A stretch of 64,000 nt of DNA from an uncultured Actinomycetota bacterium. GTDB lineage: Bacteria > Actinomycetota > Actinomycetes > DATJPE01. A model generated the notes under the pieces. It ran no database searches and had not been told where the DNA came from. It was given only the letters and a program-made list of their open reading frames with translations. The stretch lies in assembly GCA_963851405.1 (NCBI GenBank), contig CAWKPB010000007.1, forward strand, positions 351,876-415,875, read 5' to 3'. The translations under genes were made by a program, and so were the position numbers. Below, in pieces: positions 18,146 to 61,311 of this stretch (within the stretch, counting starts at the first letter, position 1; each line of letters opens with the position of its first letter).

Positions 18146-18204
18146 TCGAGTGCGGCGAAGGTGGCGCTTTGGGCCGCGAAAACGGTCCCTTTCGCGGCAC
18201 TCGA
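18146..18204. repeat. hairpin repeat, H-type copy H2
   Basis: TCGAGTGCGGCGAA-N31-TTCGCGGCACTCGA. The inner GCCGCGAAA can pair perfectly with TTTCGCGGC. Near-identical architecture to 33179-33239. Confidence 0.7.
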
Positions 18205-33178: not shown

Positions 33179-33239
33179 GCCGAATGCGGCGAAGAGGACC
33201 TAATCGGCGGCGAAAAGGGTCGCTTTCGCGGCATTCGGC
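33179..33239. repeat. hairpin repeat, H-type copy H1
   Basis: GCCGAATGCGGCGAA-N31-TTCGCGGCATTCGGC. Same arms, and the same G-G mismatch, as copy H2. Confidence 0.7.
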
Positions 33240-36032: not shown

Positions 36033-36054
36033 TCCCGCCCCGCGCTCGCCCAAA

Positions 36055-36101
36055 GCTGAGAAGAGGGCCCTTTCCTGGGCGGAATTGGTCCACTTCTCAG
36101 C
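36055..36101. repeat. hairpin element (possible divergent member of the repeat superfamily)
   Basis: GCTGAGAAG-N29-CTTCTCAGC. The inner ..GGTCCACTTC resembles the 3' arms of the other copies. Confidence 0.45.
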
Positions 36102-36161
36102 ATTCGCCGGAGTGGGCCGCGGGTGGGAGCGGCAAACGGTGGCTTGCATCCGAAGTTAGGT

Positions 36162-42112: not shown

Positions 42113-43121
<1,009 letters not shown>

Positions 43122-43158
43122 CCCTGCCCTCAGCGCCGTACCCCCTCCCCGAAGGTCA

Positions 43159-43215
43159 GAAGTGCCCGAAAGGGCTACGCGCTGAGCGTCAGGACGCCTC
43201 CGATTCGGGCACTTC
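43159..43215. repeat. hairpin repeat, E-type copy E1
   Basis: GAAGTGCCCGAAA-N32-(A)TTCGGGCACTTC. Lies between convergent hemB and the PD40 gene. Confidence 0.8.
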
Positions 43216-43250
43216 CGCCGAGCCGTCGATCTCAGTGCTGGCTCGGGCGC

Positions 43251-44312
43251 CTAGGGCACCGGGCGCCACGCGGGGTGTCCTACAGCTAGGCCCCCGATGC
43301 GCTGCGGACGCGCGCCCGGCCGCGCGTCGACGACGAATAAGCCTCGGCCGGAAGCGATGGCTAGCTGAGAGCCATCGGGGGACCACGTCAGGCCACGGGC
43401 GATTCGGCAGGGGCATTTCTCGATCGCTAGTAGTTCTTCCAGAGGGCCGCCGGATGAGGGACCGGTCAGCACCCGCACGTCTCCGGCTCTTCCGATGCGC
43501 GGGACCTGAAGTACGGCGATCGTTGCGTCGTCACCCGACCAGGCGAGGTCCCAGTAGCTCGTTCGCGTCTCGCCGTTGGTGAACACGCTGGTGCGTTCAG
43601 AACCGTCCGGCGCCACGGTCTCTACAGTTGTGCGGAAGTTTGGACCAAGGTTGGACCCGCGGACGTACGCGATCCGATCGCCGGAGCGCGACCAACTGGG
43701 GACAAAGATCGACCCGTCAGGCTCGCGGACGATCGTTCGTTGACCGCCCGCCAGGTTGAGGATCCGCAATTCGTCGCGTTCAGCCACGGCAAGGCTCAGC
43801 CCGTCGGGCGAGGCCGAGAAAGAACACTGGGTGCACGGGCCGATCGCGACGTCCCCTCCGCTGGCGACGTCGAAGGCCCGGATGGCTGTGTCGCTGGCGT
43901 AGTAGAGCGTCTGGCCGTCGGGCGACCACTGCGGGCCTCCCTCGGTCTCCGGACCCGGTGGATCGGCAGGTGTGTGAGTAAAGACTCCGAAGGCATCCGG
44001 ACCGGTCACCGGATGGATCGATTGCAGCCCGAAGCTGCCTCGCACAACGATCGGGCCGTTTCCGGTGAGTGGAGTGGTGGGGGATGGGCCGGCGGGGATC
44101 ACCGGGGCCGCCCCGTCCTGGCTCGCGTCGAAGGCAGCCCAGCCGCCGAGGACCACGGCGATGGCGGCCAGGCCGGCGACGGCGGCGCGGGTGTGTGAGC
44201 GGCGCCGTCGGGTGTGTTGGAGGTTGGCGAACATGGCGGCGCCGTCGAGGCCGGTGGTCGTGGTCGTGATGAGGTCGTCGGCGGCGGCGCGCCCGAGCTG
44301 GTCCAGGCTCAT
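43251..44312 (-). CDS. membrane-anchored PD40/TolB-like beta-propeller protein (possible anti-sigma/sensor partner)
   Basis: ATGA overlap with the sigma gene. Single TM helix (AAVAGLAAIAVVLGGWAAF). Repeated WSPDG/SPDG/WSRSGD propeller motifs. Confidence 0.65.
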   Translation of the reverse strand: MSLDQLGRAAADDLITTTTTGLDGAAMFANLQHTRRRRSHTRAAVAGLAAIAVVLGGWAAFDASQDGAAPVIPAGPSPTTPLTGNGPIVVRGSFGLQSIHPVTGPDAFGVFTHTPADPPGPETEGGPQWSPDGQTLYYASDTAIRAFDVASGGDVAIGPCTQCSFSASPDGLSLAVAERDELRILNLAGGQRTIVREPDGSIFVPSWSRSGDRIAYVRGSNLGPNFRTTVETVAPDGSERTSVFTNGETRTSYWDLAWSGDDATIAVLQVPRIGRAGDVRVLTGPSSGGPLEELLAIEKCPCRIARGLTWSPDGSQLAIASGRGLFVVDARPGARPQRIGGLAVGHPAWRPVP

Positions 44313-44929
44313 GACTCCTCCTCGATCGTGGTGGCGAATTGTCGGGCGAGTGCCTGACGACCGCGGCCGAGGTGGACCTTGGCCGAGCCCTCGGTGATGC
44401 CGAGGGTGGCGGCGATGTCGGCGACCGACAGGTCGTACACGTAGCGAAGCGCCGCGGCCTGGGCTTGGCGCCGGGGCAGGCGGCGAACCTCGGTCCAGAA
44501 GACCTCGTTGTCGACGTGCAGGGCGGGGAGTTCCCGGCGGTTGGACAAACGGACCATCGCCCTCGCTTCGACCGCGCGCCGGCGAAGGTGCGAGGTCGCG
44601 AGATTCACGCAGACCCGGCGCACCCAAGCTTCAGGCTTGTCGTAGCCGGCGATCGCGTCCCACTTCCGGTACGCGGCCAGCATCGCCTCTTGGGCGACGT
44701 CATCCGCGATCGCGCTGCCGCACAGGGCTCGGGCTAGCGCGACCAAGCGTGGCAGTTCGCGGCGGTAGAAGGTCTCAAACGGCTCCGGTCGGTCGACCCG
44801 CACCATGCCAGGCAGCGTGACGGCGACCGCCGAATCAAGGACTTCGGCGTCCCGGACGGTTGCGTCCAGGGCCGAGCCGGTCCGAGTAGCCCGCCTCGCA
44901 GCTTGTTCCATGCCCACTACTCGCTCCAC
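44309..44929 (-). CDS. ECF-type RNA polymerase sigma-70 family factor
   Basis: Region 2 (FETFYRRELPRLVALARAL.. DDVAQEAMLAAY) and region 4 (LPRRQAQAAALRYVYDLSVADIAATLGITEGSAKVHLGRGRQAL). Confidence 0.85.
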   Translation of the reverse strand: MERVVGMEQAARRATRTGSALDATVRDAEVLDSAVAVTLPGMVRVDRPEPFETFYRRELPRLVALARALCGSAIADDVAQEAMLAAYRKWDAIAGYDKPEAWVRRVCVNLATSHLRRRAVEARAMVRLSNRRELPALHVDNEVFWTEVRRLPRRQAQAAALRYVYDLSVADIAATLGITEGSAKVHLGRGRQALARQFATTIEEES

Positions 44930-45024: not shown

Positions 45025-45083
45025 GGAAGTGTCCGAAACGGAAGCGCTCCGACTTGATGTACGCCTCCGATTCGGGCACTTCC
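45025..45083. repeat. hairpin repeat, E-type copy E2
   Basis: GGAAGTGTCCGAAA-N32-TTCGGGCACTTCC. The 3' 25 nt are identical to E1 (ACGCCTCCGATTCGGGCACTTCCGC). Confidence 0.8.
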
Positions 45084-49641: not shown

Positions 49642-51058
49642 TCAGCGCAGGTATTGGGACAGGCCGCGCTTGAGGAACTGGCCGTGGCCCTTGCGGCCGA
49701 GGTAGGCGCCGTCATCGATGACCACGCTGCCGCGCGAGATCACGGTGTCGACGTGGCCGTCGATTTCGTAGCCCTCCCACGCCGAGTGGTCCATCGCCAT
49801 GTGGTGGGTCTCGACCGAGATGTGAGTACGGCCATTCGGGTCGTACACCACGATGTCAGCGTCGGCGCCTGGTGCGATGACGCCCTTCTGGCCGTACAGC
49901 CCGAACATGCGCGCGGGCGTCGTACAGCAGAGCTCGACCCAGCGCTCCAAGGTGATCCGGCCGTCGACGACCCCTTGGTAGAGCAGGTCCATCCGGTGCT
50001 CGACCGAGCCGATTCCGTTGGGGATCTTGGAGAAATCGCCCAGGCCGAGTTCCTTCTGCTCCTTGAAGCAGAACGGGCAGTGGTCGGTGCTCACCACGGA
50101 CAGCGCCTCGGTGCGCAGGTACTTCCACAGCTCGTCCTGGTGCTCCTCGGCCCGTGACCGAAGCGGTGTCGAGCAGACCCACTTGGCACCCTCGAAGCCG
50201 GGCGCGGCGAGTTGCTCTTCGAGGGAGAGGTAGAGGTACTGCGGGCAGGTCTCACCAAACACGTTGAGCCCGTCGGCGCGCGCAGCGGCCAGGGTCGCGA
50301 CCGCCTGCTTGGCGGACATGTGCACGACGTACAGCGGGGCCCCGGTGATCCGCGCCAGCATGATGGCCCGGTTGGTCGCCTCGGCCTCGGTCTCCCACGG
50401 CCGGGTCAGCCCATGGTTGACCGGGTCGGTCTCGCCACGTGCCAGGGCTTGTTGCACCAGCACGTCGATCGCGATGCCGTTCTCCGCGTGCATCATGATC
50501 ATCGCGCCGTTGTGGCCGCGTCTGCATCGCGCGCAGGACCTGGCCGTCGTCGCTGTAGAAGACGCCGGGGTAGGCCATGAACAGCTTGAAGCTGGTGACC
50601 CCCTCGGCGACCAGCTCGTCCATCGCCTTGAGCGAGTCATCATCGACGCCGCCCACGATCTGATGGAAGCCGTAGTCGATCGCGCACTCGCCGGCGGCCT
50701 TCTCGTGCCACGCAGCGAGGCCGTCCTGCACCCGCTCGCCGGTGCGCTGTACGGCGAAGTCGATGATCGAGGTCGTCCCGCCCCACGCGGCCGCGCGGGT
50801 GCCGGTCTCGAAGGTGTCGGAGGCGAACGTGCCGCCGAACGGGCAGCTCCATGTGGGTATGGCAGTCGATGCCGCCCGGGCACGACGTACTTCCCGGTCG
50901 GCGTCGATCACCGTGTCCACGCTTGCCGCGACGTCGACTCCCAGCGCCTGCTCGCCCGGCGCGAGCAACGCCACGATCCGCTCGCCGTCGATGAGCACGT
51001 CCATCTCCGTGCGCCCGGTGGCGGAAACGACTGTGCCGCCGCGCACCAGGACGGTCAT
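49642..51058 (-). pseudogene. dihydropyrimidinase / D-hydantoinase, interrupted by four apparent 1-nt indels
   Basis: [15 protein letters not shown].. at the N-terminus and ..MMHAENG.., VVHMSAK, STDHCPF at the C-terminus. Frame change near 50518-50521. A 57-nt out-of-frame patch (50841-50897) masks [18 protein letters not shown]. Confidence 0.8.
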
Positions 51059-51891
51059 GGCGCGACCAGGTCGCCGTACGCGTCCGGCCGGCGGTCGCGA
51101 TAGAACGCCCACTTGTTGCGGACCTCGGTGACCATCTCGAGGTCGAGGTCGCGGACGATCAGCTCGGCCGAATGCGCGTCGCCGACCTCGCCGACGAATT
51201 GCCCTTGCGGGTCAACGAAGTACGACGTGCCGTAGAAGTCGTCGTCGCCCAGGTCTTCGATGCCGACCCGGTTGATGGCGCCGACGAAGTACTCGTTGGC
51301 GACGGCGGCAGCGGGCTGCTCGAGCTTCCACAGGTAGCCGGACAGGCCGCGGCTGGTCGCGCTGGGGTTGAAGACGATCTGCGCGCCGTTGAGGCCGAGC
51401 GCGCGCCAGCCCTCGGGGAAGTGCCGGTCGTAACAGATGTAGACGCCGACCTTGCCGACCGCGGTGTCGAAGACGGGGAAGCCCAGGTTGCCGGGGCGGA
51501 AGTAGAACTTCTCCCAGAAGCCCTTCACGTGCGGCAGGTGGTGCTTGCGGTACTTGCCGAGGTAGCTGCCGTCGGCGTCGATGACGGCCGCGGTGTTGTA
51601 GAGGAAGCCCGGCTGCTCCTGCTCGTACATCGGGAGCACCAGCACCATGCCGAGCTCGGCGGCCAACGCCTGGAAGCGCTCCGTAGTCGGCCCGGGGATC
51701 GACTCGGCGTAGTCGTAGAAGGCGGCGTCCTGCACCTGGCAGAAGTACGGCCCGTAGAACAGCTCCTGGAAGCACATCACCTTCGCGCCGAGCCCTGCCG
51801 CCTCGCGGGCGTAGTCCTCGTGCACCTTGATCATGGACTCCTTGTCACCGGTCCACTCCGTCTGCACCATTGCCGCTCGTACCGTCGTCAT
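51055..51891 (-). CDS. carbon-nitrogen hydrolase (beta-ureidopropionase / N-carbamoyl-amino-acid amidohydrolase-like)
   Basis: CFQELF (Glu), YRKHHLP (Lys), [11 protein letters not shown] (Cys): the nitrilase-superfamily triad. 4-nt overlap with the hydantoinase gene. Confidence 0.8.
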
Positions 51892-52002: not shown

Positions 52003-52059
52003 GAAGTGCCCGAAAGGGAGGCATCCTGGGGCGCGAGGCGCTCCCGTTTCGGGCACTTC
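52003..52059. repeat. hairpin repeat, E-type copy E3
   Basis: GAAGTGCCCGAAAGGGAG-N..-CTCCCGTTTCGGGCACTTC. Shares its inner TGGGGCGCGAGG(G)CGCTCC with E4. Confidence 0.8.
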
Positions 52060-52147
52060 TGGCCCCGTGGGACCGGCCGCAGCCCCCTGCGGCGCGGCTG
52101 TGGACGACGCCGGCGACGGTACGGCTGTCGCTGCCAGCCTGGTCGGT

Positions 52148-53090
52148 ATGACCGTGGCGCCTACCCGCGAAGGGCCGACCAGGGGCCGTCGCCCCGGCCG
52201 ACGCTGGGCCAGGGTCGGCCACGGGCTCTACCTTCCGAGCCCCACCGACGGCTTGACCGCGACCCTCACGGCCTGGCAGCAGGTGCTGCCATCGTCGGCT
52301 GGCTTCACTGGACTGACGGCGGCGGAGGCGTATGGCTGGTGGCTGCCAACAGACCCCGACGATGCGCCGATCTTCGCGGCCATGCCCAAGGGCGAGACGA
52401 CTCCCAAGCGGCGAGGCCTCGCCGTCGCACGCCTGGCGCGTACTCCGCGGCTGGTCACCTGGGCCGGGCTGCGGCTGACCACTCCCGGCGAGACCCTTCT
52501 GGCCTGCGCTCGGGACCTGGGGCTGCTCGACCTGGTGCTGCTGTGCGACGGAGCGCTGCACCTCGAAAGCTGCACGCGTCTGGACATCGAAGCCGCCGCC
52601 ATGCCGGGCCGTCGGGGATCGCCGCGGCTTCGCCAGGCGCTCGCGTTGGCCGACGGGCGTTCGGAATCAGCGTGGGAGACAGTGCTGCGGCTGTTCCACA
52701 TCTCCTGCGGGGTAGAGGTCGAGACTCAATACGTCCTCCGCAACGATGACGGCGGGTTCGTGGCCCGCGGCGACCTCTGGCTGGTCGGGACGCGGAGCCT
52801 GCATGAGTACGACGGGGGCGTCCACCGCACCCCGCGCCCAGCATCGGGAAGATCTCGCTCGGGACCGGCGCATCCTCGATCGCGGCTGGACCCGCCGGGG
52901 CTACACCAGCGTCGACCTCCTCCACCGGCCGGTCGCCATCCTGCGCGAGGCCGATGCGGCGCTTGGGAGGCCGCATCGTCCGCAACGCGTCCGGTCCTGG
53001 CACCGCTTGCTCGCCGCGTCGATGCTGACCGCGGCCGGGGCGGAGCACGTACGCGGCCGGTGGGCGAGGGCGCTGCGCCGAGTCGGCTGA
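52148..53090 (+). pseudogene. AbiEi-like N-terminal / DUF559-like (Vsr-fold endonuclease-like) protein, copy A, frameshift near 52829-52833
   Basis: ..[10 protein letters not shown].., ..[49 protein letters not shown]| then another frame reads [26 protein letters not shown]. About 45 % identical by eye to copy B. Confidence 0.65.
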
Positions 53091-53145
53091 AGTGCCCGAA
53101 ACAGCGGCGCTTTGGGGCGCGAGGGCGCTCCGATTCGGACACTTC
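53089..53145. repeat. hairpin repeat, E-type copy E4
   Basis: GAAGTGCCCGAAA-N32-TTCGGACACTTC. Overlaps the stop codon of copy A. 17 nt upstream of hemL. Confidence 0.8.
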
Positions 53146-53161
53146 CGGGTGGGCTGAGAGG

Positions 53162-54490
53162 ATGAGCGGTGTGACGTCCGCCGATTCCCGCGCGCTGTTC
53201 GACCGCGCGCTCGCGGTGACCCCGGGCGGGGTCAACTCGCCGGTGCGCGCCTTCCGCGCCGTGGGCGGCACGCCGAGGTTCATGACCTCGGGCGTCGGGC
53301 CGTACGTCGTGGACGCCGACGGCAACGACTACGTGGACCTGGTCTGCTCGTGGGGGCCGATGATCCTTGGCCACGCCCACCCGGCCGTGGTCGATGCGCT
53401 GACCGAGCAGGTCGCGCTGGGTACGTCCTTCGGGGCGCCCGGTCGCTATGAGGTCGAGCTCGCCGAGGAGATCGTCGCGCGGGTCGAGCCGGTCGAGCAG
53501 GTGAGGCTCGTGAGCAGCGGCACCGAGGCGACGATGTCGGCGATCCGGCTGGCCCGCGGTTTCACCGGCCGCAGCAAGGTGGTGAAGTTCGCGGGCTGCT
53601 ACCACGGCCATGTGGACGCGTTGCTGGCGTCGGCCGGGTCGGGTGTGGCCACGCTGGGCCTGCCGGACACCCCGGGCGTGACCGGCGCGAGCGCGGCGGA
53701 CACCCTCGTGCTGCCGTACAACGATCTGGCCGCCGTCGAGGCGGCGTTCGCGACCCACGGCGACACCATCGCGTGCGTCATCACCGAGGCGGCCGCCGCC
53801 AACATGGGGGTCGTCCCCCCACTGCCGGGCTTCAACGCCGGCCTCGCCGAGCTCTGCCGGCGCCACGGGGCGCTGTACATCAGCGATGAAGTGATGACCG
53901 GGTTCCGGGTGAGCCGCAGCGGGTGGTTCGGCCTAGATGGCGTCCGCCCCGACCTGATGACGTTCGGCAAGGTGATGGGCGGAGGGCTTCCCGCCGCCGC
54001 GTTCGGCGGTCGGCGCGAGGTCATGGAGCACCTCGCGCCCCTCGGACCGGTCTACCAAGCGGGCACCCTGTCCGGGAACCCGCTCGCCACGCTCGCCGGC
54101 GTCACGACGCTGCGGCATTGCACCGACGAGGTCTACGCGGTCGTCGACCACGTGGCCGCCGAGGTCGGACGGCTGGCGTCGGAGGCGCTGAGCAAGGAAG
54201 GCGTCCCGCACGTGCTGCAGCAGGCCGGCAACCTGTTCAGCCTCTTCTTCGTCGACCCCTCCGAGACGCCCGCCGTCACGGACTATGCGACGGCAAGAAC
54301 TCAGGCGGCGTACCGCTTTGCACCGTTCTTCCACTCCATGCTCGACCAGGGTGTGTCCTTGCCACCGAGCGCCTTCGAGGCGTGGTTCGTCTCGGCGGCC
54401 CACGACGACATCGCCCTCGAACGCGTCGCCGACGCCCTGCCCGCCGCAGCCCGCGCGGCCGCCGAAGCCCAACCCGAAGGAGCCGCGTGA
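53162..54490 (+). CDS. hemL: glutamate-1-semialdehyde 2,1-aminomutase
   Basis: [12 protein letters not shown], and [16 protein letters not shown] (PLP Lys context). Confidence 0.9.
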
Positions 54491-55152
54491 GCGACCAGCC
54501 CTCGTCCGACGACGCGATCACCGTCGTCCACCTCGTCCGGCACGGCGAGGTCCACAACCCGGAGAAGATCCTGTACGGGCGGCTGCCCGGCTACCACCTG
54601 TCCGAGCTCGGCCGCGAGATGGCCGAGGTTGTGGCAGCGTCGTTCGCCGGACGCGACATCACCCACGTCGGGTCGTCGCCGCTGGAACGCGCTCAAGAGA
54701 CGGCCAACCCGATCGCCGGGGTGCACGAGCTGCCCATCGTCACTGACGATCGGCTGATCGAGGCGGAGAACTACTTCCAGGGCATGCAGTTCGGCGTGGG
54801 CGACGGGTCGCTCAAGCACCCCAAGCATTGGCCGCACCTGATCAACCCGCTCACTCCTTCCTGGGGGGAGCCGTACATCCAGCAGGCCGAGCGGGTGCTC
54901 GCGGCGATGGGCGCCGCCCGCGACGCGGCCAGCGGTCACGAAGCCGTGCTGGTCAGCCATCAGCTGCCGGTGTGGACGACCCGCTGCAAGGTCGAAGGTC
55001 GGCGGCTGTGGCACGACCCCCGCAAGCGCGAATGCACCCTGGCGTCGGTCACGTCGTTCACCTATGAGGGCAACGAGATCGTCGCGGTCGCCTATACCGA
55101 GCCCGCGAAGGCTTTGCTGCCCAGCGGCAAGACGTACACCGCCGGCGCCTGA
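54487..55152 (+). CDS. histidine phosphatase (phosphoglycerate-mutase-like) family protein
   Basis: [11 protein letters not shown] (RHG motif) and [15 protein letters not shown] overlap with hemL. Confidence 0.8.
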
Positions 55153-55157
55153 TCATC

Positions 55158-55769
55158 ATGGGGAAGGTTGTGGTTGCTGGAGCAACAGCAAAGTTCCCCA
55201 TGGTGGCCGCCGTGGCCGTGACCGCCGCACTGCTGCTCGCCGGCTGTACGACGGCCGCCGGCGCGGGCACGCCGGTCGACCAGCCGGAGCAGAACTATGT
55301 GTCCGGCTCGGGCACCATCACCGAGGTCCCGGCGGCCGACCGGGGAGACCCGATCGAGTTGGCCGGCGAGACCCTCGACGGGGACACTCTCGATCTCGCC
55401 GACCTTCGCGGGCAGGTCGTCGTCGTCAACGTGTGGGGCTCGTGGTGCCCGCCCTGTCGCGCGGAGGCACCCGTCCTCAAGGCGGTCAGCGACGACCTGG
55501 TGGGCGACGACGTGGCGTTCGTCGGCATCGACACCCGCGATAGTGACGCAGCAGCAAGGGCTTTCGTCGAGAACGTCGGCCTCGATTACCCCAACATCAT
55601 TGACCGGGACGGGGTGAAGTTGCTGGCCTTCCATGGCGACATCAACCCGCAGGCCATCCCGTCCACTCTCGTCCTCGACCGGCAAGGCCGGGTGGCGGCT
55701 CGCGTCGTGGGCGAGGTCACCGAGGGGACGTTGCGCGCGCTGATCGAGCCGCTCGTCGCCGAGCAGTGA
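55158..55769 (+). CDS. TlpA/ResA-like thiol-disulfide oxidoreductase lipoprotein
   Basis: Lipobox [21 protein letters not shown] CxxC motif. Confidence 0.85.
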
Positions 55770-56512
55770 TCACCGCCGCGGCTGACACCGTCGTCAACGG
55801 TTCCTTCGTGCTGGCCGCGATCATCGCGGTTGCCGCCGGGCTGGTGTCGTTCCTCAGTCCGTGCGTGCTTCCCCTGGTGCCCGGCTATGTCTCGTACGCG
55901 ACCGGGCTGGTCGGCGCCGACATGGCGGAGGCCAGGCGCGGTCGGTTGCTTGCGGGCTCGGTGCTGTTCATCGCGGGCTTCACCGTCGTCTTCGTGAGCC
56001 TTGGGGCCTTGGCGGGGTCGCTGGGGGCGCTGCTCATCGAATACCAGTTGGTGATCACCAAAGTGTTGGGGGTGCTCACGATTCTGCTCGGGCTGGCCTT
56101 CCTCGGCTGGCTTCCGTGGGCGAGTCGCGAGTGGCGTTTCCACCGGATGCCGACCCTCGGACTCGCCGGGGCCCCGCTGCTGGGTGTGCTGTTCGGCCTG
56201 GGCTGGACACCGTGCATCGGGCCGACGCTGGCTGCGGTCCAGGCGCTGGCGCTGAACGAGGCGTCCGCGCTGCGCGGGGCGCTGCTCATGGTGTTCTACT
56301 GCATCGGCCTCGGGCTGCCTTTCGTCATCTTCGCTTTGGCGATCCGGCGGGCAGCCGGGGGGCTGGCGTGGTTCAAGCAGCACTACGCGTTCATCATGGG
56401 CTTCGGCGGCGCGATGCTCGTCATCCTCGGGATCCTTCTGGTGACCGGGATCTGGGCGGATCTCGCCGTGCAGATGCGCGTCTGGGCGGTCAACTTCGAG
56501 GTGGCGATCTAG
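55766..56512 (+). CDS. ccdA: cytochrome c biogenesis thiol-disulfide transporter CcdA
   Basis: [13 protein letters not shown] and GWTPCIGP: the paired Cys motifs of the DsbD/CcdA core. Confidence 0.9.
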
Positions 56513-58106
56513 GTGGCCGACACCCTCGAGTCGACCACGCTCGAACCCGACCGCAAGCCAGAGCCGATCAAGGTGCCGACGCTTGGCCCGGGTGGGCTCG
56601 CGCGGTGGGCCTGGCGCCAGCTGACCAGCATGCGTACGGCCCTGATCCTGCTGTTTCTCCTTGCCCTGGGCGCGATTCCGGGGTCGCTGTTCCCGCAGCG
56701 CGGGGTCAATCCGATCCAGGTCTCGAACTACCGGGCCGACAATCCGACGATCGCCCCATGGCTGGACCGGTTCGGGTTCTTTGACGTCTATGCGTCGTCG
56801 TGGTTCGCAGCCATCTACTTGTTGCTGTTCATCTCCCTGATCGGTTGCGTGCTGCCCCGGTGTGCGCAGCACTGGCGGGCGATCCGGGCGGCCCCACCTC
56901 CGGCCCCGCGCAACCTGTCGCGCCTCCCGGTGTCGATGTACTACGAGGGAACCGACGACCCGGCGGCCGTACTCACGCGGGCCGAGGAATCGTTGCGGGG
57001 CCAGCGGTTTCGGGTGGTCACAGGCGACGGCTGGGTGGCCGCCGAGAAGGGCTACCTGCGGGAGACGGGCAACCTGGTCTTCCACCTGTCGCTGATCGTG
57101 CTGCTCATCGGGGTGGCCATCGGGGCGCTGTTCGGGGTGAAGGGCGTGGCGCTGGTCGTCGAGGGTGAGGGCTTTGCCAACACAGTCACGCAGTACGACC
57201 AGATCTCGCCCGGACGGGCGTACGACATCGACTCGCTCGCGCCGTTCTCATTCACCCTCGACGACTTCCGGGCGACCTACGAGGCCGGACCGGTGCAGAC
57301 GGGCGCAGCTCGTACTTTCGAGGCTGACGTGACGGTGACAGACGCTCCTCGTGCCGAGCCGCGCACGCAGACGGTGCAAGTGAACGACCCGCTGCGTTCT
57401 GGCGGGTTCAAGGCGTTCTTGGTGGGACACGGATATGCGCCGGTGTTCACGGTGACCGACGGCGACGGCCGCGTGGTGCAACAGGGCCCGGTGCCGTGCA
57501 TCCCGCAGGACGGCAACTTCACCTCCGAGTGCGTGGTGAAGGTGCCGGACGCGAGACCCGGATCAGCTGGCGCTGGTGGGGTTCTTCTTCCCGACGGTGG
57601 TCGATGGTGGCGGCCCGGTGTCGTACTTCCCGGGCGCGGAGAACCCCGAGGTCTACCTCAACGTGTTCACCGGTGACCTGGGTCTGGACGACGGCATCGC
57701 GACGTCGGTCTACTCACTCGACACCACGAACCTCACGCCGGTAAAGGCGGAGCCGACCGACGGGGCTCCGCTGGTGGTCGTGCTCAAGCCGGGGGAGTCG
57801 GAGACGTTGCCGGACGGGCTCGGGACGGTGAGCTTCGACGGGATCCAGGAGTGGGCGACCTTCGAGATCGCGCGCGACCCCGGCAAGGAGTTGGCGCTGG
57901 TCGGCGCGGTGGCGGCGATCGCTGGATTGCTGCTCTCGTTGTTCGTGCGGCGACGGCGGATCTGGGTACGAGCGGTCGCAGGGCCGGACGGCGTCGGCGG
58001 CACTACGGTGGTCGAGGTGGCCGGGCTCGCCAAGAACGAGGCGGGCGGGGTCGACGATGAAGTGGAGGCGCTGGTGCGCGTCCTGCGCGGCGAGGAGCAA
58101 CCGTGA
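56513..58106 (+). pseudogene. resB: cytochrome c biogenesis protein ResB/Ccs1, frame broken near 57554-57560
   Basis: SMRTALILLFLLALGAIPGSLFPQR is ResB-like. ..CVVKVPDA| shifts frame to PDQLALVGFFFPTVVDGGGP... and ends at 58106. Confidence 0.8.
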
Positions 58107-59138
58107 TCGACCAGGGCATGGCCCAGCTCAGCCTCGAGCTCGCCTATGCGGCGATCGCGATCTATGCGGCCGCTTTTGTCGCGTACGCGGTGGCTGCGGC
58201 CGCTGTTGTGGGGGCGAAGGACGACGCGAAGGTGAAGGAGCCAGCGCTGGTCGGCGCCGAGCCGGTGCCCGGGGTCGTCGCGGAGTCGGTCGATGGGCTT
58301 GAGGGACTAGACGGACCTGACGGCTCGGGTGGCCCGTCGGCTGACGGGGCGGCAGGCCTACCCCCGATGCCTGGGCGGAAAGCGGCGGGGATCGGTACGT
58401 CGCTGACCGTGCTGGCGTTCGCGTTGGAGCTGGCCGCGGTGATCGCGCGCGCGGTGTCGGTGCAGCGGGTGCCGTGGGGCAACATGCACGAGTTCACGCT
58501 GACGACGTCGACGGTGCTGGCGGGGGCGTTCCTCTTCTTCGCGCTGCGTGACCGCAGCAAGCAGGTGCTGGGCGTCTTCGTGGTGCCGGCGGTACTGCTG
58601 GCGCTCGGGCTGTCGGTGACGGTGTTGTATGCGGACGCGGCCGAGCTGGTGCCGGCGCTGCAGTCCGGCTGGCTCGTCGTGCACGTGATGGCCGCGATGA
58701 TCGCGACGGGCGCCTTTGCGTTGGGGGCGCTGTTTTCCGGCGCTCTACTTGGTGAAGGAGCGCTCCGACCGGCGGCTGGCTGCGGGAGACATCTCGCGGC
58801 CGGGGTGGGTGGCGCGGCTGCTGCCGGAGGCCCGTTCCATGGACCGGCTGGCCTACCGGATCAACGCGTTCACCTTCCCGCTGTGGACCTTCGCGGTGAT
58901 CGCCGGCGCGATCTGGGCGGAGAACGCGTGGGGGCGGTACTGGGGGTGGGACCCCAAGGAGGTGTGGGCGTTCATCACCTGGGTCGTCTACGCGGCCTAC
59001 CTGCACGCGCGCTCGACGGCCGGGTGGAAGGCGCGCGGGTCGTCGTGGATTGCGCTCGCCGGCTTCGGCTGCCTGATGTTCAACTACTTCGGGATCAACC
59101 TGCTCGTCAGCGGCCTGCACTCCTACTCCGGCGTCTAG
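58103..59138 (+). pseudogene. ccsB: cytochrome c biogenesis protein CcsB/ResC, frame broken near 58737-58741
   Basis: ..ATGAFALGALFS| shifts frame to ALYLVKE.. The WGRYWGWDPKEVW tryptophan-rich haem-handling motif lies in the second frame. Confidence 0.8.
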
Positions 59139-59183
59139 CCCGGCGGCCGTACGGGCCGGGGCGGGAGCAGCACGCTCGCCCAT

Positions 59184-59207
59184 CCGGCCGCATGGCCATG
59201 CGGCCGG
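59184..59207. terminator. perfect 24-bp GC palindrome downstream of ccsB
   Basis: CCGGCCGCATGG|CCATGCGGCCGG. No T-tract, so a terminator role is tentative. Confidence 0.35.
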
Positions 59208-59271
59208 CCTCCCGCCAGGCCCAACCACGCTCGCTTACCCGCTCACGCCCCGGCCCCGCCGTACCCGTTCC

Positions 59272-59326
59272 AAGTGGTGCCTTGGGGGCTGCTGGGTGCC
59301 CGAGATGTCGGGCTAAGGCACCACTT
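59272..59326. repeat. hairpin repeat, F-type copy F1
   Basis: AAGTGGTGCCTT-N31-AAGGCACCACTT (perfect 12-bp arms). Inner hairpin GCCCGA-GATG-TCGGGC. 5' flank GCCGTACCCGTTC. Confidence 0.8.
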
Positions 59327-59334
59327 CTGCGGGG

Positions 59335-60317
59335 TCAGGTCACCAACTCGGTACGGCTGGGCCGGCCGGACGCGCGCTGGTCCCATCGAGCGGTGATCCG
59401 GGCGCGGCCCGCGGGGCTGAACAGCGACTTCGCCACGAGGGCGTGCCAGCGCCGTCCGTGCTCCGCGCGATGAGGTCGGCCAAGGGCCAGGTCGATGTCG
59501 CGGATGACTCCCGCTGCGCCCTCGATGACGTCGCGGCTCGTGTAGCCGCGCCGGGTCCAGGCGGCGGCGACCAGCCGGCGGTCGCGGAGCAGGTCGGCCC
59601 GGTGCTGGGCGCGATCGCGGTGGACCGCGCCGTCGTACTCGTGCAGCGTGCGCGTCCCCGCCAGCCAGAGATCGCCGCGCGCGACGAAACTGCCGTCGTC
59701 GGCGACCACGATGTGCTGGGGTACGACGTGGCGCGGGCGGTGTGTGAAGCGAGCCGCAGCACCGACTCCCAGGGTGACTCCGACCGCTCGTCGGCGTGCT
59801 CGAGCGCCGCGGCCAAGGCGGGTGCGCCGCGACGCTTGACCCGGCAGGCGGCGACGAGTTCGTCGCGGGTGCACAGGCCGGTGGCGAGCGCCGAGTCGCA
59901 CAACACGACCAGGTCGATCAGCCCGACGTCCCGGGCGCACGCGCGCAGCGCCTCGGCCGGTGGCGCCAGCCGTACGCCGTCCAGCATCCGACTCCGTGGT
60001 GGCTCCGGATGGCGGCTCACGACCAGACCCGGCCGGCGCGAACGTGGGTCGCTCACGTGCTGGGCCACGAAGAGCGGCGGCCGTACGGGCAGCGGCGGCG
60101 TCCAGAGGCCGTACGCGCGGGTGGCCGTCAGGTGGGTGAACACCGAGGTCGGTGGAAGCACCAGCTGCCAGGCGCCCAGCTCCTGGAAGAAGCTGTCGAG
60201 CGATTCCTTCGGCGTGCCCAGCCCGCCGGGCTCGGTCCCGGAGGCGGCCGAGAGGTAGAGCCCGCGCGACAGGCGGCGCGACCGAGGCGCCGGCCGCCGC
60301 CCGATGCTTGGCTGCAT
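59335..60317 (-). pseudogene. AbiEi-like N-terminal / DUF559-like protein, copy B, frameshift near 59748-59753
   Basis: MQPSIGRRPAPRSRRLSRGLYLSAAS.., ..SESPWESVLRL| then another frame reads [65 protein letters not shown]. Confidence 0.65.
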
Positions 60318-60392
60318 CCGTCGAGCCTGGCCGGGTCGGGCGCAGCCGCGGGCGGCTCGTCCACAGGCCTCGCCCAGCCGCCGTACCCCCTC

Positions 60393-60447
60393 AAGTGGTG
60401 CCTTGGGGACGAGTCGGGGGGCGGAATGTCGGGCTATGGCACCAGTT
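60393..60447. repeat. hairpin repeat, F-type copy F2
   Basis: AAGTGGTGCCTT-N31-ATGGCACCAGTT. 5' flank GCCGTACCCCCTC, which also precedes E1. Inner CGGAATGTCGGGC. Confidence 0.75.
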
Positions 60448-61238: not shown

Positions 61239-61294
61239 CAGTGGTCGTATACCGAGGCCGGGGCGCCCGGAATGTCGGAATATTCGGCCACTTG
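61239..61294. repeat. hairpin repeat, F-type copy F3 (degenerate)
   Basis: CAGTGGTCG...CGGAATGTCGGAATATTCGGCCACTTG. Flank GGGGCCGTACGGG. Confidence 0.55.
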
Positions 61295-61311
61295 GGGCCG
61301 TACGGGCGCTG

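Follow-up and report, generated by a model that had tools for sequence, protein, structure and literature searches.

A family of AbiEi- and Vsr/DUF559-like fusion proteins in Actinomycetota is flanked by direct copies of a dispersed 55-bp palindrome

Introduction

Some short repeats of bacterial genomes are tied to a particular gene. In the repetitive extragenic palindrome (REP) systems of Proteobacteria, a chromosomal gene for a REP-associated tyrosine transposase (RAYT) is flanked by its cognate extragenic palindromes, and many more of these lie dispersed near the 3′ ends of genes; the genes are inherited in a mostly vertical and syntenic manner, and one genome may hold several paralogues, as divergent from each other as random members of the family and each with its own repeat type (PMC3337134). 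Here we present a gene family of Actinomycetota that resembles these systems in several of these traits and encodes a different enzyme. It came to light in a stretch of 64,000 nucleotides from an uncultured Actinomycetota bacterium (contig CAWKPB010000007.1, positions 351,876 to 415,875; the whole stretch is called the window below), in which two paralogous genes, copy A and copy B, each lie between two direct copies of a palindrome of about 55 bp.

The loci also differ from REP/RAYT systems. Where a RAYT is an IS200-like HUH/Y1 transposase, the protein here is predicted to join an AbiEi-type winged helix-turn-helix module to a Vsr/DUF559-type PD-(D/E)xK domain; where RAYT genes are flanked by REP doublets, the flanks here are single 55-bp palindromes in direct orientation, with DnaA boxes between palindrome and gene; and the repeat copy number in the actinobacterial hosts is apparently lower. 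The original prediction, drawn from the letters of the window, had likened the two genes to a REP/RAYT unit with another nuclease family, and both the family-wide flanking by palindromes and the PD-(D/E)xK fold bear this comparison out.

Several other described systems share parts of this anatomy. The antitoxin AbiEi binds two 23-bp inverted repeats, and Rv2827c binds pairs of 23-bp repeats separated by a 13-bp gap, all of them within 131 bp of the start codon; a Rv2827c operator pair covers ~59 bp in total, much like the palindrome here (PMC7319586). The N-terminal 168 aa of our family are modelled with the same two-domain AbiEi fold (1zel, 6y8q), but there is no adjacent AbiEii/DUF1814 toxin gene and a nuclease domain is fused instead, matches stay below the Pfam AbiEi thresholds, another palindrome stands at the 3′ end, and the repeat has dispersed copies as well. 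With the DUF559/Vsr nucleases, which include the EDxHD homing endonuclease I-Bth0305I, the family shares a predicted fold and the motif D...E-x-D-G-x-x-H, yet it scores below the Pfam DUF559 threshold and carries the AbiEi-type module. Unlike homing endonuclease genes, these genes are chromosomal and intergenic, lie outside introns and phages, and have whole palindromes on both flanks. As in IS200/IS605 elements, hairpin-forming ends enclose the gene, and gene-less copies of the hairpins occur too; here, however, there is no HUH transposase or TnpB, and both ends consist of the same palindrome, repeated in full and in direct orientation. The loci also differ from insertion sequences in that a genome holds no multiple near-identical copies, and the flanking repeats measure 55-90 nt rather than the few bases of a target-site duplication. 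A full-text literature search (DUF559 with hairpins or repeats, AbiEi with DUF559, and REP or REPIN/RAYT in Actinobacteria) returned no description of the association. To our knowledge, none of the DUF559/Vsr-like nucleases fused to AbiEi-type modules, which are common in Actinomycetota, has an assigned function.

Results

The family was sampled as 80 further loci from GTDB species genomes (Nocardioidaceae, Propionibacteriaceae, Cellulomonas, Microlunatus and Geodermatophaceae, cultured isolates included), which together with the window make 81 loci. Its genes lie in a fixed module of ~1.2 kb, composed of a palindrome, one or two DnaA boxes, the open reading frame (ORF), and a second palindrome in direct orientation at or over the stop codon. 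A sequence-agnostic hairpin finder, with a background of 0.21 hairpins per kb, placed 44 hairpin centres between -200 and -50 from the start codon and 43 between -20 and +130 from the stop codon, where 2.5 were expected in each case (p ~1e-38 and p ~2e-37). At each of the two fixed positions this enrichment, ~17-fold over background, falls mostly within a single 50-nt bin, and it answers a check proposed in the original prediction, namely whether other paralogues are hairpin-flanked as well. The two flanks of a locus also resemble each other: in 77.5% of 80 loci their similarity exceeded the 95th percentile of mismatched pairings. They form direct repeats of 55-90 nt, identical at up to 64/66 positions (locus L003), and their similarity runs 25-35 nt past the palindrome.

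When centred, the hairpins align without gaps to a 55-nt palindrome with the consensus AAGTGGTCACnnACGACA...TGTCGTnnGTGACCACTT, in which the size is fixed, the G9:C55 pair is invariant, and the inner arms vary in a compensating manner, although the counts of pair covariation rest on hairpins that had been preselected as palindromic and are partly circular. At its 3′ end the ORF extends, in about half of the loci, into the downstream palindrome, which then contains the stop codon, and in 11 loci this codon is the TGA of GTGACC. On the other side, a palindrome of AbiEi-operator-like geometry lies 60-140 nt upstream of the gene, and it is present both with divergent upstream neighbours (16/25) and with tandem ones (24/42). 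That the upstream hairpin is the terminator or 3′ end of the neighbouring gene was therefore rejected, since it is equally frequent with divergent neighbours, and the palindrome is best counted as part of the nuclease unit. Because the neighbourhoods of non-syntenic loci differ and have no neighbour gene in common, there is no conserved partner gene.

Both genes of the window (GC ~69%, high-GC actinobacterial DNA) lie at the positions first assigned to them, copy A at 52148-53090 on the + strand (ATG at 52148, TGA at 53088-53090), between a CN-hydrolase gene and hemL, and copy B at 59335-60317 on the - strand, between ccsB and a PLDc_N gene. Each frame is broken once, in copy A by a 1-nt insertion (an extra C in the run at ~52822-52826) and in copy B by a 1-nt deletion at ~59748-59751. 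When repaired, the two proteins have 313 and 327 aa and are 48% identical over 310 aa (E=5e-92), close to the ~45% that had been judged by eye. An orthologue of copy B, 70% identical, occupies the same site in a relative, locus L036. Since neighbouring genes are frameshifted too and the nearest relatives of the window are long-read 'MFD' metagenome-assembled genomes, assembly errors are a likelier cause of the two breaks than pseudogenisation. Frameshifts also occur in resB (56513-58106), ccsB (58103-59138), a dihydropyrimidinase gene (50252-51112) and the hemB read-through (42113-43582); that several conserved and normally essential genes are each split by a single frameshift suggests long-read assembly indels rather than decay.

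The upstream palindrome of copy A, E3 (52003-52059, 57 bp, arms GAAGTGCCCGAAAGGGAGGC / GCTCCCGTTTCGGGCACTTC), lies 89 nt before the start codon and folds as a strong DNA hairpin (fold z=-5.8; covariance-model score 44.8 bits), and the downstream one, E4 (53089-53145), overlaps the stop codon by 2 nt and is degenerate (fold z=-1.8). For copy B the strong hairpin is the downstream one, F1 (59272-59326, 55 bp, AAGTGGTGCCTTGG...CTAAGGCACCACTT; fold z=-5.2, 31.1 bits), which lies 8 nt past the stop, while the degenerate F2 (60393-60447; fold z=-1.5) stands 76 nt before the start. These distances agree with the geometry originally read from the window, 75-90 nt upstream and abutting or overlapping the stop. 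Identity is 82% between E3 and E4, 82% between F1 and F2, and 51-61% between the E and F subtypes, and the arm words of the hairpins are much commoner in the window than in shuffled sequence. Scans for sigma-70 promoters and terminators gave nothing, the hairpins have no U-tract, and an Rfam search over the region found no RNA family.

The protein family itself is poorly covered by curated models. Copies A and B had no match in Pfam (at E<=1) or NCBIfam. Among 26 family members, Pfam DUF559 (PF04480) gave sub-threshold matches in 12 (best E 0.0013), MTES_1575 matched in five, and AbiEi_1 matched in only two, again below threshold (best E 0.0027); Y1_Tnp was found neither in these members nor in copies A and B, and the PADLOC defence library gave a weak AbiEi match (E 0.01) for copy B only. 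Homologue searches revealed a large Actinomycetes family of ~300 aa without a precomputed Pfam domain, some members of which are labelled 'very-short-patch-repair endonuclease' by JGI, and a family profile recovered 326 clusters (50% identity) at E<=1e-30 and 11,658 at E<=1e-3. The alignment of 26 members has eleven invariant residues, E173, S174, W176, E177, D209, E220, D222, G223, H226, D235 and R238, and its D..E.DG..H segment can be aligned, if weakly, with 3hrl, a DUF559 crystal structure (E 0.12). The active-site motif of the C-terminal nuclease module is intact.

Predicted structures place both halves of the protein with more confidence. In Foldseek searches with the full AlphaFold model (pLDDT 94, pTM 0.90), the best match of the C-terminal domain was the catalytic domain of I-Bth0305I (3r3p_B; prob 1.0, TM-target 0.63, 96/98 columns), followed by RAP-domain and R2 endonuclease domains; against viral models it matched many phage DUF559, Vsr and homing-endonuclease proteins (prob 1.0). 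The N-terminal 168 residues, modelled alone (pLDDT 93.5), matched Rv2827c (1zel_A; E 7e-4, prob 1.0, TM-query 0.60) and the AbiEi of S. agalactiae (6y8q_D; prob 1.0). From these models the protein is predicted to be an AbiEi-type, DNA-binding-like N module (winged helix plus AbiEi C-domain) fused to a Vsr/DUF559-type PD-(D/E)xK nuclease; in copy A the AbiEi-like module would take up ~aa 1-168 and the nuclease ~aa 170-260, followed by a helical tail. The label 'AbiEi-like/DUF559' given in the original prediction thus holds at the level of folds and does not hold in curated sequence models. Adjacent to copies A and B there is no gene for an AbiEii (DUF1814 nucleotidyltransferase) toxin, and neither a T:G mismatch-repair context nor a partner methyltransferase was seen nearby.

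The palindromes are matched to the gene that they flank. In pairs of syntenic orthologues, a flank often resembles the other flank of its own locus more closely than it does the corresponding flank of the orthologue, so the flanking copies evolve in concert. When only non-syntenic pairs are compared, the identity of the palindrome arms follows that of the N domain (rho 0.265, a value reached by 0/500 permutations) and has no correlation with that of the nuclease domain (rho -0.045). The subtype correspondence that had been put forward as a check is therefore found twice, in the likeness of same-locus flanks and in arms that track N-domain identity. Solo palindromes within the fetched loci are likewise most similar to the flanks of the gene in the same locus, and own-locus flanks rank first of 64 for the solo copies of L049 (two copies), L028 and L076 and for E1 and E2, two solo copies in the window. 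With two ~21-bp arms and a gap of ~13 bp, the palindrome of 55-59 bp has the geometry of the Rv2827c operator, 23+13+23 bp.

The stretch between the upstream palindrome and the start codon holds a second conserved element, the motif yTGTCCACAG (also written TGTCCACAG), with 73 forward occurrences at -100 to 0 in 83 loci and a background of 0.06 per kb. This motif matches the actinobacterial high-affinity DnaA box, which in M. tuberculosis and S. coelicolor is TTGTCCACA (PMC4285127, Table 1). At least one box is present in 61 of the 83 loci and two are present in 19; paired boxes stand in direct orientation ~30-32 nt apart, or roughly three helical turns (L040, L042, L032, L043, L069 and L063), and the first of them often abuts the upstream palindrome. 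Both window copies, as well as L001, L003 and L036, have one box in the opposite orientation, which in the window is TCGTCCACAG at 52098-52107 (- strand, 50 nt before the start of copy A) and at 60357-60366 (+ strand, 49 nt before the start of copy B). The motif was also considered as a part of the repeat, and this was rejected for want of any enrichment beside solo palindromes. DnaA may have a role at the module.

Away from the genes, the palindrome recurs as a REP-like repeat dispersed over intergenic DNA, and most of its copies are solo. A covariance model, R1, found ~150 sites in 1.46 Mb of DNA surrounding family genes, mostly at the gene flanks, a share that is inflated and partly circular because R1 was built from flanking copies. 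As a control, a ccdA-based fetch of distant actinobacteria (<=63% identity) gave 1.47 Mb of ccdA neighbourhoods with 11 R1 matches (~8 sites); 80 of these more distant neighbourhoods contained no family gene, and the strongest match was a solo palindrome directly after ccsB in L140, that is, at the site of copy B. A search of 185,579 species genomes for the exact consensus arms returned 107 stretches, all but one in the same taxa, and a family gene was near the consensus palindrome in 0/64 of the stretches that had at least 1.4 kb on both sides. The solo palindromes follow ordinary genes and are intergenic, mostly 16-76 nt after a stop codon, with 17 in convergent, 30 in tandem and 9 in divergent arrangement. 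The exact E-subtype pattern matched one GTDB genome only, and the E subtype is thus lineage-specific. Other genes that happen to lie between two hairpins (pirin, MazF, rplL, NlpC/P60, GNAT) were considered as alternative cargo and rejected, the hairpins being solo repeats in successive intergenic regions. Palindromes beside unrelated genes, which the original prediction would have counted against itself if they were equally frequent there, do occur and most are solo, yet palindromes are enriched at both flanks of the family genes.

The genes themselves seem to move little. Family proteins that are >=70% identical are almost always found at syntenic sites, within-genome paralogues are 49-66% identical (the median for the family is 49%), and 72,556 plasmids and 50,697 phages lack the family but for one distant match each. 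Because close orthologues are syntenic, paralogues are divergent, and plasmids and phages lack the family, its history looks like one of long-term vertical residence. Among the loci sampled, only the window has two family genes within 20 kb, and its surroundings offer three sites within 9 kb whose occupancy can be compared: site 1, which separates the CN-hydrolase gene from hemL, and sites 2 and 3, which follow ccsB and a DUF4229 gene, respectively. Relatives whose CN-hydrolases are 92-96% identical fill these sites in different ways. In the window, copy A fills site 1, copy B fills site 2, and site 3 holds a degenerate solo palindrome (61241-61295). In L036, site 2 is filled and site 1 holds an E-like palindrome that appears to enclose a second one; in L001, site 1 is filled, site 2 holds an unrelated palindrome and no gene, and site 3 is empty; in L002 and L004, site 1 holds 1.5 palindromes, site 2 is empty, and site 3 is filled; and in L140, site 2 holds a solo palindrome. 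The empty hemL and ccsB junctions that the original prediction had proposed to look for therefore exist, as gene-less alleles with a solo palindrome, with 1.5 palindromes or with none. The genes at site 1 of the window, site 1 of L001 and site 3 of L002 are mutually 67-69% identical, and all three use the '..CCGAAAG' arm subtype. The inward-pointing geometry of copies A and B around the hemL-ccsB block is real, as first described; the significance given to it does not stand, for relatives carry one gene only, or use the third site, and since they fill sites 1-3 independently the bracket is a coincidence of two independently occupied sites.

Three gene-less sites show further detail. At 17040-17160 of L036, a complete palindrome of another subtype (CGAGTGGCGGCGAACGGGGCGAT...ATCGCCCCGTTTCCTGCCACTCGA) appears to be nested centrally within the E-like palindrome, a hint that these repeats can insert within each other. 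In L002 the CN-hydrolase|hemL site (2905-2995), which is empty, has a single palindrome and, in addition, a repeat of its right arm (TTTCGGCCACTTCTG occurs twice), and this could be the footprint of a deletion between two flanking copies. The ccsB|PLDc_N site of L001 (17055-17165) contains the unrelated palindrome, which is large (CACGTGATCATGCACATGTGGTGTG ... CCACACCATTTCTGCATGATCACGTG) and has G- and C-rich runs on its flanks.

The window holds about nine such hairpins in 64 kb. E1 (43159-43215), after hemB, and E2 (45026-45082), beyond an ECF (extracytoplasmic function) sigma gene, are solo palindromes of the copy A subtype; among 65 loci, E1 is nearest to the flanks of copy A. They bracket this sigma gene (44309-44929, - strand) and its putative anti-sigma/TolB-like partner (43251-44627, - strand), and resemble solo repeats of consecutive intergenic regions more than the ends of a cassette. 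The matching of subtypes first described, E on both sides of copy A and F on both sides of copy B, was thus found; the E subtype is not exclusive to copy A, as E1 and E2 flank the sigma/anti-sigma unit. The palindromes at 18146-18204 and 33180-33238 share a further arm subtype (GAGTGCGGCGAAGG / GAATGCGGCGAAGAGG ... CTTTCGCGGCAyTC), for which the window has no family nuclease gene, and a weaker palindrome of the same general build lies at 36049-36107. A 52-nt near-perfect palindrome at 55154-55205 (CATCATGGGGAAGGTTGTGGTTGCT / AGCAACAGCAAAGTTCCCCATGGTG) lies across the start of the thioredoxin gene, which is tlpA-like. Elsewhere, tandem arrays of ~62-79 nt (L065, 17030-17404) and ~31 nt (L005, 3633-3919) lie close to or overlap hairpin matches, and the L065 array is unrelated to the gene flanks there.

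Discussion

With about as much confidence as doubt, we read these loci as palindrome-specific nuclease loci that work like REP/RAYT systems with an unrelated enzyme. On this reading the AbiEi-type N module would bind the two ~21-bp inverted arms of the 55-bp palindrome, and the Vsr-type domain would nick or cut at dispersed cognate palindromes. Binding at the palindrome of its own locus would lead to autoregulation, repair from sister copies would homogenise, spread or renew the palindromes, and from time to time such repair might insert the gene at a site with a palindrome or remove it from one. Nicks or cuts that are mended from a template would account for the concerted evolution of flanks, the subtype populations, and the toggling of sites between a gene with two palindromes and a solo palindrome. 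A stronger form of the same reading, which is possible though on balance doubtful, is that of an independently evolved REPIN/RAYT-type intragenomic replicator of Actinomycetota, in which the AbiEi-Vsr nuclease would propagate and homogenise the 55-bp palindromes and its activity or expression would be coupled to DnaA.

Several points weigh against a REP/RAYT-like role. The copy number appears modest, with ~16 R1 sites away from the gene flanks in 1.46 Mb of DNA surrounding family genes and no more than ~8 copies of the exact consensus in any one genome, and there are genomes with solo palindromes of the consensus type whose fetched gene copies have other subtypes. The correlation with the N domain is moderate and could partly reflect faster evolution of that domain. 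Mismatches within the stem are balanced (GT/TG 46 vs AC/CA 40) without strand asymmetry, and they therefore give no sign of folding by one strand or RNA alone. The partial circularity of the covariation counts and of the R1 shares also belongs here; the figures unbiased by the selection of hairpins or of a model are the positional enrichment, the position of the palindrome, the similarity of upstream and downstream flanks, and the 0/64 consensus census. We know of no record of PD-(D/E)xK nucleases dispersing repeats on their own.

Two other explanations have to be taken seriously, and we consider both unlikely. One is a selfish homing-type gene, for which a solo palindrome would be cut and repaired from a palindrome-gene-palindrome donor, so that the gene is copied into new sites; the palindrome would then be both target and homology arm, and the flanking direct repeats would be the signature of insertion. 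It draws on a homing endonuclease as nearest solved structure, with phage homing endonucleases and DUF559 proteins among the structural matches, on three sites in 9 kb that are variably occupied and hold solo, 1.5 or no palindromes when empty, on flanking pairs that are nearly identical in places (64/66 in L003), on an ORF that extends to the edge of the repeat, and on the copy A lineage, which occupies site 1 of the window and of L001 and, in L002, site 3, at equal divergence (67-69%). Yet recent mobility is nowhere to be seen: near-identical copies at different sites are lacking, paralogues are only 49-66% identical, and pairs at >=70% identity are nearly all syntenic. ORFs and catalytic residues stay intact across deep divergence, unlike in the usual cycle of invasion and decay, insertion would regenerate two cleavable targets instead of destroying the site, and the pattern of presence and absence is explained equally well by deletion between direct repeats. 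The other explanation is an ordinary autoregulated chromosomal nuclease with a part in repair, defence or a toxin-like function, whose upstream palindrome would be an AbiEi-type operator and whose downstream palindrome a terminator or second operator, the dispersed copies being an independent host repeat, terminators for example, or a regulon. AbiEi and Rv2827c do autoregulate through 23-bp inverted repeats <=131 bp from the start (PMC7319586), a geometry and position that the palindrome matches; solo palindromes are located where terminators would be, inheritance is vertical, plasmids and phages lack the family, and the DnaA boxes suggest host-integrated regulation. What an ordinary host nuclease leaves unexplained is the similarity of flanks for 25-35 nt past the palindrome, the fusion of a nuclease to a repressor-like module, and the toggling between filled and solo sites; moreover, the hairpins have no U-tracts, PADLOC gives only a weak AbiEi match, and there is no conserved partner gene.

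Chance adjacency to generic intergenic repeats is very improbable. It could appeal to the consensus palindromes, most of which are solo and follow unrelated genes, to E1 and E2 around the sigma unit, and to the sheer number of about nine hairpins in the 64-kb window, but it is effectively refuted by the ~17-fold positional enrichment, the subtype match within loci, and the few control matches (11 in 1.47 Mb), and the N domain co-varies with the arms. More improbable still is a composite unit of two genes that mobilises or insulates the hemL-ccsB block. The convergent, inward-pointing genes of the window gave rise to this idea, but L001 has the hemL-side gene only, L036 the ccsB-side gene only, and L002 neither but one beyond DUF4229; the 80 more distant ccdA neighbourhoods contain neither gene, and the two genes use different palindrome subtypes. 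The synteny comparison refutes such a unit, and with it a composite-transposon reading of the block.

For the AbiEi-DUF559/Vsr family, the palindrome-specific reading would supply a candidate substrate, a defined 55-bp gene-flanking palindrome, together with a candidate specificity determinant in the N module and a possible host input in the DnaA boxes, which opens the function of the family to direct testing. If the palindromes are maintained or spread by the nuclease, partnerships of the REP/RAYT kind have arisen at least twice with unrelated enzymes, and such a repeated origin, if true, matters for understanding the persistence of long-lived repeat populations in bacteria. Should the replicator reading be true, the palindrome would be the first defined cellular substrate for DUF559-like nucleases, and the origin of REP-like repeats in these high-GC genomes would be explained.

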